In this document: one piece after another, positions 36,375 through 37,647 of the stretch | Numbering within the stretch: position 1 is the stretch's first letter | Layout: the number at the start of each line of letters is the position of its first letter | Virus record (IMG/VR): IMGVR_UViG_2724679058_000003 | Source of the DNA: a virus | Taxonomy: Duplodnaviria; Heunggongvirae; Uroviricota; Caudoviricetes | Length of the DNA stretch: 64,000 nucleotides | Strand: one strand, 5' to 3' | Notes under the pieces: generated by a model | Told to the model about the DNA's origin: nothing | The model's input: the letters and a program-made list of their open reading frames with translations, nothing else | Database searches by the model: none | Program-made: the position numbers and the translations under genes

Positions 36375-36676
36375 TGCAACGGAAACTAACTAAGCGTAAT
36401 AAAAATTGGTTGAGCGACATGCTGAAAAAAGCCAATCGCAACCATATGTACCTCAACTACTGGCTATCAATTAAAGGTAATCTCAGTGATGCAAAAATGA
36501 TCGACAGACATGTTGCGCGCTATGGTGTTTCACTTGTCTTAGAAAAGGCTGAATTAGTATTTTCGGAATATTATTCCATTCCGCAAATTAGCTCCAAAGG
36601 AAAAATATGTGGCTATGTGCTCAAACATAAAAGCAAGCTGGATGAGCTTTTAGTCAGGGAAAAGGAGACGCAATGA
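36371..36676 (+). CDS. Hypothetical protein
   Basis: 101-aa ORF coupled to ban. Confidence 0.5.
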   Translation: MMQRKLTKRNKNWLSDMLKKANRNHMYLNYWLSIKGNLSDAKMIDRHVARYGVSLVLEKAELVFSEYYSIPQISSKGKICGYVLKHKSKLDELLVREKETQ

Positions 36677-37647
36677 ACATCCTGATCATTGGGCGAAAAT
36701 TTGAAGCTATCAGTGATGTGAAAACATATACGGAAATGTGGGCTTACAACCTGGCCTGCGCCTTTAGTGAGGCTGGGGTAACATTGCAATACCATCGTCC
36801 ATATTCTCCCGGCGTCGAAAGCCCGGAGGATTATGTTGAAGCTGTGTTGACCGCTGCGCTCTCGTGTTCTGCGAAAGCCATTTTAGCGCCAGGATTGCGG
36901 TATTTTACTACGGTGCCCAGGGAAATAGGCGTGCAACTGCGTCGTCGATTCACTGGATGGGTAGCTCAGGTATACGACGGTTCTATGCTGGATTCGGCAC
37001 CAGTCGATATTACTTTTACTGTCCGCGATGATACCTGGCGGTACCTGGATAATCCCGGTCGGTTAGAACGTCATAATCGCTTTAACAAACATGTTGGATG
37101 GGCAGCGAATCAGGAGCTGTTCCATCTGGAAACCAAAACGGACGATGTTCTGCGTATTTTTGTAGACCACGCTGCATTTGATGTTAGTGGGTTTGATCAC
37201 TCCTTAAGTATCCTTATGAACCTTCAGCGTCTGACTGTTCCGTATGAGGCCAGAACGTTGACCGATGACGGATTGGTTACCATTGATCCGGGGAATATTT
37301 CGGTAACTCCATACAGACGGACGCCGGTACCAGCAACCGAATTTGCAGCTGAATTGCGTAAGAGTGACGTTTTTATCGTTACGCATCCCGAAAGCCTTGG
37401 ATTAACTGTTCTTGAGGCGGCAATGTGTGGGGCGTTGATATTAACGCCGCCAGATTGCCTTCCGCCAGATCGCCTGGCTTTGGTGAACCATATGGTTATC
37501 AAGTCGCGGATTGATTGGGATGAGGTTATTGCTCGCGTTGATCGCGTGAAAAATGCTGAAAAGGTCCAGTGTCACACCTGGTCGGCAATCGCGGAAAAGA
37601 TGCTTGAGACGTTTATCACGCAGAAACCGTCGCGAGGTAACGGATAA
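36673..37647 (+). CDS. Glycosyltransferase (GT-B-like)
   Basis: 324 aa; C-terminal ESLGLTVLEAAMCGALILTP resembles the group-1 glycosyltransferase motif. Confidence 0.55.
   Translation: MNILIIGRKFEAISDVKTYTEMWAYNLACAFSEAGVTLQYHRPYSPGVESPEDYVEAVLTAALSCSAKAILAPGLRYFTTVPREIGVQLRRRFTGWVAQVYDGSMLDSAPVDITFTVRDDTWRYLDNPGRLERHNRFNKHVGWAANQELFHLETKTDDVLRIFVDHAAFDVSGFDHSLSILMNLQRLTVPYEARTLTDDGLVTIDPGNISVTPYRRTPVPATEFAAELRKSDVFIVTHPESLGLTVLEAAMCGALILTPPDCLPPDRLALVNHMVIKSRIDWDEVIARVDRVKNAEKVQCHTWSAIAEKMLETFITQKPSRGNG

Follow-up and report, generated by a model that had tools for sequence, protein, structure and literature searches.

Why should a gene for a putative glycosyltransferase stand at the end of a helicase operon in a P1-like phage-plasmid? 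The question is raised by the 64,000-nucleotide stretch of viral DNA analysed here (hereafter the window), in which an earlier note had drawn attention to a 324-aa open reading frame (ORF) ending with a GT-B-type motif. That note placed the gene directly downstream of ban, took P1 to lack such a gene at this position, and suggested that its product could modify host surface polysaccharide or glycosylate DNA or virion components as anti-restriction. Both the ORF and the motif exist (Table 1), the peptide ESLGLTVLEAAMCGALILTP being residues 240-259 of the 324, that is, in the C-terminal third and not at the very end of the protein.

Table 1. Features of the window discussed in the text, in order of position
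Feature	Position	Strand	Description
Bivalent C1 operator (P1 Obanab, formerly Op72ab)	32175..32202	.	Overlaps the ban-operon promoter; upstream control of the operon ending in dbn
ban	35004..36374	+	DnaB-like replicative helicase (Pfam DnaB_C E=9e-108, DnaB E=3e-35); ortholog of P1 ban
ORF101	36374..36676	+	100 aa from ATG, 101 aa from TTG at 36371; orphan between ban and dbn
Insertion	36380..36672	+	293 bp in place of 18 bp of P1 (TGGAATGAGGAAAAGCCG), by alignment to P1 and P7
dbn (P7 glt)	36673..37647	+	324 aa, ATG start; putative glycosyltransferase, soluble, predicted GT-B fold, GT4-like; E-x7-E at E240..E248
Intrinsic terminator	37669..37695	.	Bidirectional hairpin for convergent dbn (+) and gene 5 (-): AAAAGCCCG-agtgc-CGGGCTTTT
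pmgO	43583..44245	+	MptE-like (DUF115), Pfam MptE-like E=6e-5, below cut-off; RefSeq 'alpha-2,3-sialyltransferase' in P1
pmgP	44143..44769	+	Second MptE-like protein; Dbn companion in other phages
pmgQ	45440..46168	+	GT-A/GT8-like putative glycosyltransferase with invariant DxD; RefSeq 'glycosyltransferase' in P1

The flagged gene is dbn of phage P1

Searching phage records by megablast with positions 36300-37700 returned P1, P7, RCS47, SJ46 and 14 further P1-like records at 95-98% identity, every match being split in two, with about 300 bp of the window missing from all 18 records. The P1 counterpart is dbn (P1_gp078, YP_006544.1), located between ban and the baseplate gene 5 and annotated as 'function unknown, possible glycosyltransferase'; that of P7 is named glt ('encodes putative glycosyltransferase'), and that of RCS47 is listed as 'putative glycosyltransferase, Dbn'. 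In all three it is the same gene in the same place between ban and gene 5, followed by the same terminator, and the synteny of ban, dbn and gene 5 with P1, P7, RCS47 and SJ46 is intact, the sole difference in the megablast comparison being a 293-bp insertion that carries ORF101. The flagged ORF is orthologous to P1 dbn and closes the C1-repressed ban operon of a P1-like phage-plasmid. It occupies exactly the position at which P1 had been taken to lack such a gene, and since it is annotated and conserved there, the claim of novelty fails by the earlier note's own standard, a conserved P1 gene.

Dbn of the window shares 96% of its nucleotides and 97% of its amino acids with that of P1, aligns along its whole length with PHROG 2518 (E=3e-232; residues 1-324 fall on positions 9-332 of the profile), and is 97% identical in amino acids to P0001, whose cluster is named 'glycosyltransferase family 4 protein [Escherichia coli]'. 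The gene is carried by 471 PLSDB plasmids and by 477 of 5426 complete E. coli genomes (~9%), in which 474 of its 484 places are on plasmids. It is intact at 324 aa in all 80 of the P1-like IMG/VR loci examined, and its dN/dS against P1 is 0.12, so it is a maintained gene; dbn is real, not a chance ORF, and is under purifying selection. Recent acquisition peculiar to this plasmid was considered and rejected.

The ban-dbn junction and the start of dbn

The gene is not directly downstream of ban as had been stated, because a 100/101-aa ORF (36371/36374..36676) separates the two and overlaps both neighbours by 1-4 nt, its ATG with the ban stop codon (TGATG) and its stop codon with the dbn ATG (ATGA). 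This ORF101 belongs to the insertion, the 18 replaced P1 bp of which (TGGAATGAGGAAAAGCCG) fall inside the first 8 annotated dbn codons. The inserted DNA has a GC content of 38-40% against ~48-50% in the flanks, and brings with it ORF101 and a new AAGGAG ribosome-binding site ahead of the conserved Met of dbn. It was found in none of the 18 phage records, in 52 of the 471 PLSDB plasmids, in 80 of the 477 dbn-positive E. coli genomes and in 14 of 80 P1-like IMG/VR loci; public plasmids already contain this variant, which is in the minority. In P1-like phage-plasmids the ban-dbn junction is a small site at which a cargo gene, ORF101, has been inserted.

ORF101 matches PHROG 12809, a family of unknown function (E=1e-45), has no Pfam, NCBIfam or PADLOC family, and found nothing beyond near-identical E. 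coli proteins among 5.8 billion proteins. Seven phage records contain homologs of 33-37% identity. That of Cronobacter phage JK004 (33% identity, L013 3004-3294) stands directly 3' of a DnaB helicase, which hints at a recurring association between ORF101 and the helicase, but the gene preceding the homolog of Avunavirus phages is an RlaP-like nucleotidyltransferase instead.

Reading of Dbn in the window begins at a conserved internal Met and yields 324 aa; P1 is annotated with 332 aa, and in place of its 8 additional codons the window has the 293-bp insertion with ORF101. The start annotated for P1 dbn is probably 8 codons too early, because the N-termini of the family (MKILLI...) begin at the conserved Met in the 48-sequence alignment. 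At the P1 dbn 5' end itself (L001 3075-3098; MQWNEEKP-MNIL...), a GAGGA ribosome-binding site, the family N-terminus and the insertion variant all indicate the second Met. In the P7 allele the codon that corresponds to W23 is changed from TGG to TGA, a premature stop (L002 ~3140-3145; alignment A1 columns 448-450). The annotated P7 Glt begins 45 codons further downstream, which removes the first strand and helix of the fold, and it is for this reason that P7 Glt is probably non-functional.

Fold and family of Dbn

The earlier proposal of a glycosyltransferase is borne out in part. Pfam Glycos_transf_1 (PF00534) matches only residues 221-307 of Dbn (E=3.6e-5), at 23.8 bits against a gathering cut-off of 26.4, and 17 of 48 family members match it at E<=0.01, the best E-value being 1.2e-5. 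In Pfam, up to an E of 1, Dbn matches none but the GT-B group-1 families PF00534, PF13524 and PF13692, no GT2 or Gtr family being among them; NCBIfam gives one match of 14.9 bits, to a sucrose-phosphate synthase domain, and PADLOC gives no defence-system match for Dbn or ORF101. An AlphaFold2 model built from the 48-sequence alignment (pLDDT 94.7, pTM 0.90) has a GT-B fold with two Rossmann-like domains, and a Foldseek search of the PDB retrieves retaining GT-B/GT4 enzymes for it at E ~1e-9 and at most 15% identity, all structural neighbours being soluble GT-B enzymes. Judged from the model, the closest structural relatives are retaining, nucleotide-sugar-dependent GT4 enzymes, including sucrose-phosphate synthase (6KIH), BshA (6N1X), PimA (2GEJ), GlgM (6TVP) and the LPS core enzymes WaaB (6Y6I) and WaaG (8B5S), whose E-x7-E donor-site motif Dbn keeps. 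Dbn differs from these enzymes in its shorter length (324 aa), its identity of 8-15% and its PF00534 score below the gathering threshold, so that the predicted GT-B/GT4-like class is solid at the level of fold and marginal at the level of sequence.

The homologs reach down to 28% identity, and 14 residues are invariant in the 48-sequence alignment that spans this range, among them T237, H238, E240, S241, G243, E248, D102, W143, A144, D165, H166 and D175. Both Glu of the E-x7-E motif (E240-SLGLTVL-E248) are invariant in the 48 sequences; with the family profile the motif aligns with the same motif in 8XSG and MshA, similarity to PDB sequences being limited to ~40 residues around it. Inspection of alignment A2 by eye found neither the canonical Gly-rich N-terminal (GG) loop of GT4 after strand 1 nor the Arg/Lys phosphate-binding pair to be evident, and the 'G-R...K' expected after the first C-domain strand reads as an invariant 'V-D165-H166...D175'. 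Donor chemistry could therefore differ from that of GT4, or some family members could be non-catalytic.

The family is small and mostly phage-borne. Searched against 1.84 billion cluster representatives, the family profile retrieved only 425 at E<=0.001, and so falls short of mainstream GT4. Homologs occur at 5 loci in 185,579 species-representative genomes, too few for statistics, of which two are informative. The long members of the family are fused mostly to partners without a Pfam domain, and one is fused to a methyltransferase.

Companion genes in other genomes

The neighbours of distant Dbn homologs are mutually homologous and match pmgO, pmgP and pmgQ of the window, with tblastn E of 1e-32 to 1e-81 (1e-32 to 1e-56 for the pmgO region). 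An HMM scan of ~30 non-P1 loci found that in almost all viral loci a PmgQ homolog starts at the Dbn-homolog stop codon or overlaps it (L003, L005/L103, L008, L010, L012, L104-L108, L110, L113-L117, L126 and L138), that in L109 it begins ~0.5 kb downstream, and that PmgO/PmgP-like genes often lie just 5' of the Dbn homolog. In one case the two are a single protein, P0110 (522 aa), which joins a PmgO-like part (26-216, E=2e-29) to a Dbn-like part (219-521, E=3e-93). Both Dbn and PmgQ are present and stand apart in P1-like, Citrobacter-type (L015, L016, L111, L112) and Buttiauxella (L099) elements. A DxD motif is invariant in the PmgQ family (alignment A5), the profile of which matches the GT8 enzyme 6MW5 (E=1.1e-5).

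Dbn and proteins of the PmgQ and PmgO/PmgP types are linked in evolution. All four are encoded in the window, dbn being parted from pmgO-pmgP-ppp-pmgQ by an oppositely oriented tail/baseplate operon, and since the genes are not contiguous in P1, we infer their co-function there from other genomes. In P1-like elements ppp (44751-45443), a predicted lambda-type Ser/Thr phosphatase (Metallophos E=9e-16), lies between pmgP and pmgQ. No ORF was found between the PmgP-like and PmgQ-like genes in L010, L012, L015, L016, L099, L111 and L112.

Dbn homologs are located beside the portal gene in a P2-like prophage (L010), 5' of terminase in a lambda-like prophage (L012) and on a 95-kb Citrobacter plasmid (L015). 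In the P2-like prophage (L010 7644-11708, minus strand) PmgO-like, PmgP-like, Dbn-like and PmgQ-like genes lie in the cargo region that follows the portal gene, and these four adjoin a 1354-aa KAP-family NTPase. Large environmental phage contigs of 96-281 kb (L003 5190-10395; L005 5849-11130; L008 6524-10425) have an extended glycan cluster around Dbn-PmgQ. The clusters of these large phages include a cytidylyltransferase fused to a mannose-6-P-isomerase-like cupin, a polysaccharide pyruvyl transferase, a methyltransferase, weak GT8/GT47 matches and duplicated or fused PmgQ-like genes, with RecA and terminase nearby.

Among bacterial homologs, P0025 (41-42% identity, L007) lies between KpsMT and KpsC/S-KpsD/E and adjoins an MptE-like/WaaZ_KDO_III-like gene, and a Francisella homolog (33% identity, L100) belongs to a cluster of KdsA, KpsF, an MptE-like protein above the Pfam threshold, the Dbn-like protein and a GT1-KpsC-like protein. 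In this respect Dbn resembles the serotype-specific (region 2) glycosyltransferases of Kps/group-2-type capsule loci, its homologs sitting in such clusters. P1 differs from Kps capsule loci in having neither the export genes (KpsMT, KpsDE) nor KpsC/S, and therefore would need a host-made acceptor. We know of no capsule phenotype for P1.

Transcriptional control

In the operator at the head of the ban operon two matches to the C1 consensus overlap, one with 0 mismatches and the other with 2, at the position of the P1 Obanab annotation; the window as a whole has 9 such matches against 0.38 expected by chance. With Obanab upstream and a terminator after dbn, dbn (and here also ORF101) is distal in a C1-repressed operon. 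The terminator was missed by a simple terminator scan and confirmed by folding, the RNA of 37660-37705 having a predicted energy of -21.1 kcal/mol (z=-4.1 against shuffles), and the hairpin is kept in P1 with changes in the loop. The pmgL-pmgQ operon of P1 is annotated with C1 operators and a late promoter (LPpmgL). Given C1 operators at both operons, both parts of the set are expected to be on after derepression and off in the quiescent plasmid prophage.

On the other side of the terminator, gene 5 (37695-38328, minus strand) is split into ORFs of 60 aa and 178 aa by an extra A at 38168-38172 (A5, against A4 in P1). Among 81 P1-like loci, A5 occurs in none and A4 in 70. The baseplate gene 5 is essential in P1, and the A5 would therefore be either a sequencing error or the mark of a plasmid that is a defective phage.

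Published phenotypes of P1 mutants

In-frame deletions of dbn, pmgO, pmgP, pmgQ and ppp have been constructed in P1, and all but six of the knock-outs of that study gave infectious virions with a parental-like restriction phenotype on EcoA, EcoB and EcoK hosts (PMC9024508). Essential genes named there are pmgA, pmgB, pmgC and pmgG, along with pmgR, none of the five being among them, and the restriction phenotype of the dbn, pmgO, pmgP and pmgQ deletions is similar to that of parental P1 (PMC9024508 Table S3). Dbn is not mentioned among the P1 virion proteins, and the main text of this study of virion proteome and structure has no term beginning 'glycos' (PMC9024508). CRISPRi knock-down of dbn, pmgO, pmgP, ppp and pmgQ left the plating efficiency of P1 near 1 (PMC10695390). 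Plaque formation in laboratory K-12 does not require the module. As the knock-outs are infectious and their restriction phenotype is parental, these data speak against the DNA glycosylation that had been suggested as an anti-restriction measure, and for an accessory module; together with the premature stop in P7, the single knock-outs without phenotype mean that any benefit would be conditional.

A proposed function and its alternatives

We propose that Dbn would take a hexose from an NDP-sugar and add it to a growing glycan, and that PmgO, PmgP and PmgQ would act in the same pathway. The acceptor would most likely be a lipid-linked envelope glycan on the cytoplasmic side of the inner membrane, namely LPS core or else a Kdo-linked glycolipid, because two bacterial homologs are found in Kps-type clusters for capsule together with genes for the Kdo linker or for Kdo supply, and because the enzyme classes (WaaZ-like, GT4, GT8) parallel LPS core assembly. 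Remodelling of this glycan might set in after C1 derepression, that is, in lytic growth, and could hide the receptors of infected cells and of debris, or keep other phages out; LPS core is the receptor of P1. To the explanation as a whole, that the gene is P1 dbn and encodes an NDP-sugar transferase acting with PmgO, PmgP and PmgQ to remodel an envelope glycan during lytic growth, we assign a probability of about 0.55. A wider reading is offered tentatively, at clearly less than even odds. In it Dbn, PmgO, PmgP and PmgQ would form one ancient mobile glycan module of four enzymes, with relatives among Kdo-type capsule enzymes, that is common to temperate phages of the P1, P2 and lambda types, to other phage-plasmids and to large phages from the environment; in P1, on derepression of the prophage, it would remodel the LPS core, the receptor of P1 itself, or build a Kdo-linked glycolipid, and would mask receptors in the lytic phase.

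The main rival, which we hold to be unlikely, is that Dbn and PmgO/P/Q put a short glycan on capsid, sheath or fibres during late morphogenesis. Glycosylation of virion proteins is carried out by mycobacteriophages and giant viruses, and the best viral structural match to the Dbn model is a Tupanvirus glycosyltransferase (TM 0.79-0.81), while the best PDB sequence match of PmgQ is a protein-glycan GT8, the Skp1 galactosyltransferase. Further points in its favour are the location of the pmg genes behind the late promoter LPpmgL and beside tail genes, the methyltransferase fusion in the Dbn family, and the Dbn-PmgQ pairs in the contigs of large, apparently lytic phages, where genes for nucleotide-sugar, pyruvyl-transferase and methyltransferase functions lie close to RecA and terminase, a context that fits virion glycosylation at least as well as envelope remodelling. 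Against it, the deletions plaque normally, the virion study uses no 'glycos' term in its main text, the bacterial homologs are in capsule loci and not in protein-glycosylation loci, and dbn itself is in the early C1-controlled ban operon, not in a late one.

Classical lysogenic conversion, in which Dbn would be made from its own sigma-70 promoters within ban and would modify the O-antigen, LPS or capsule of the lysogen, has in our judgement only a small chance of being right. The P1 annotation does place two such promoters (P1dbn and P2dbn) inside ban, and in P2-like and lambda-like prophages the homologs stand where cargo genes ('morons') are carried. However, P1dbn and P2dbn are predictions, our scan of ban gave one weak promoter-like site, fewer than the shuffled expectation for the region, and the operon is under a bivalent C1 operator. 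Known seroconverters are membrane GtrABC-type enzymes or acetyltransferases, and Dbn is unlike them, having none of the hallmarks of the Gtr system (GtrA/GtrB/GtrC: membrane GT2 bactoprenol transferase, flippase, periplasmic GT-C).

It is more doubtful still that Dbn is a catalytically dead or decaying GT-B relic with no current enzymatic role in P1. Knock-outs without phenotype, the premature stop in P7, an Arg/Lys pair that is not evident and a Pfam score below cut-off would all agree with decay, but they are countered by the low dN/dS and the 80 intact loci, by fourteen residues, both Glu of E-x7-E included, that stay invariant down to 28% identity, and by a linkage to PmgQ that is conserved across deep divergence. 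That Dbn glycosylates a modified base of P1 DNA against restriction, as do the T4 alpha- and beta-glucosyltransferases or the DNA glycosyltransferase of phage HY126, which are likewise phage-encoded and of GT-B fold, is very improbable and was rejected, since the four deletions keep the parental response to restriction, the nearest structural neighbours are metabolic and glycolipid GT4 enzymes and not DNA glycosyltransferases, the bacterial homologs lie in capsule loci, ordinary restriction enzymes routinely cut P1 DNA, and P1 is not known to have a hydroxymethyl-pyrimidine pathway.

Implications

The gene that raised the question is a rediscovery of an annotated P1 gene, and the guess at its fold, though correct, was already known. 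In the literature searched, no paper assigns dbn a function or ties it to pmgO, pmgP or pmgQ, and the link between Dbn and PmgO/P/Q, apparently undescribed in the searchable literature, gives experiments a concrete handle on four uncharacterised P1 genes. In P1, a workhorse phage, the comparative link would place dbn, pmgO, pmgP and pmgQ in one pathway with a testable class of acceptor. If envelope-glycan remodelling is true, receptor masking in the lytic phase would be new for P1, and three 'putative morphogenetic' genes would be reassigned.
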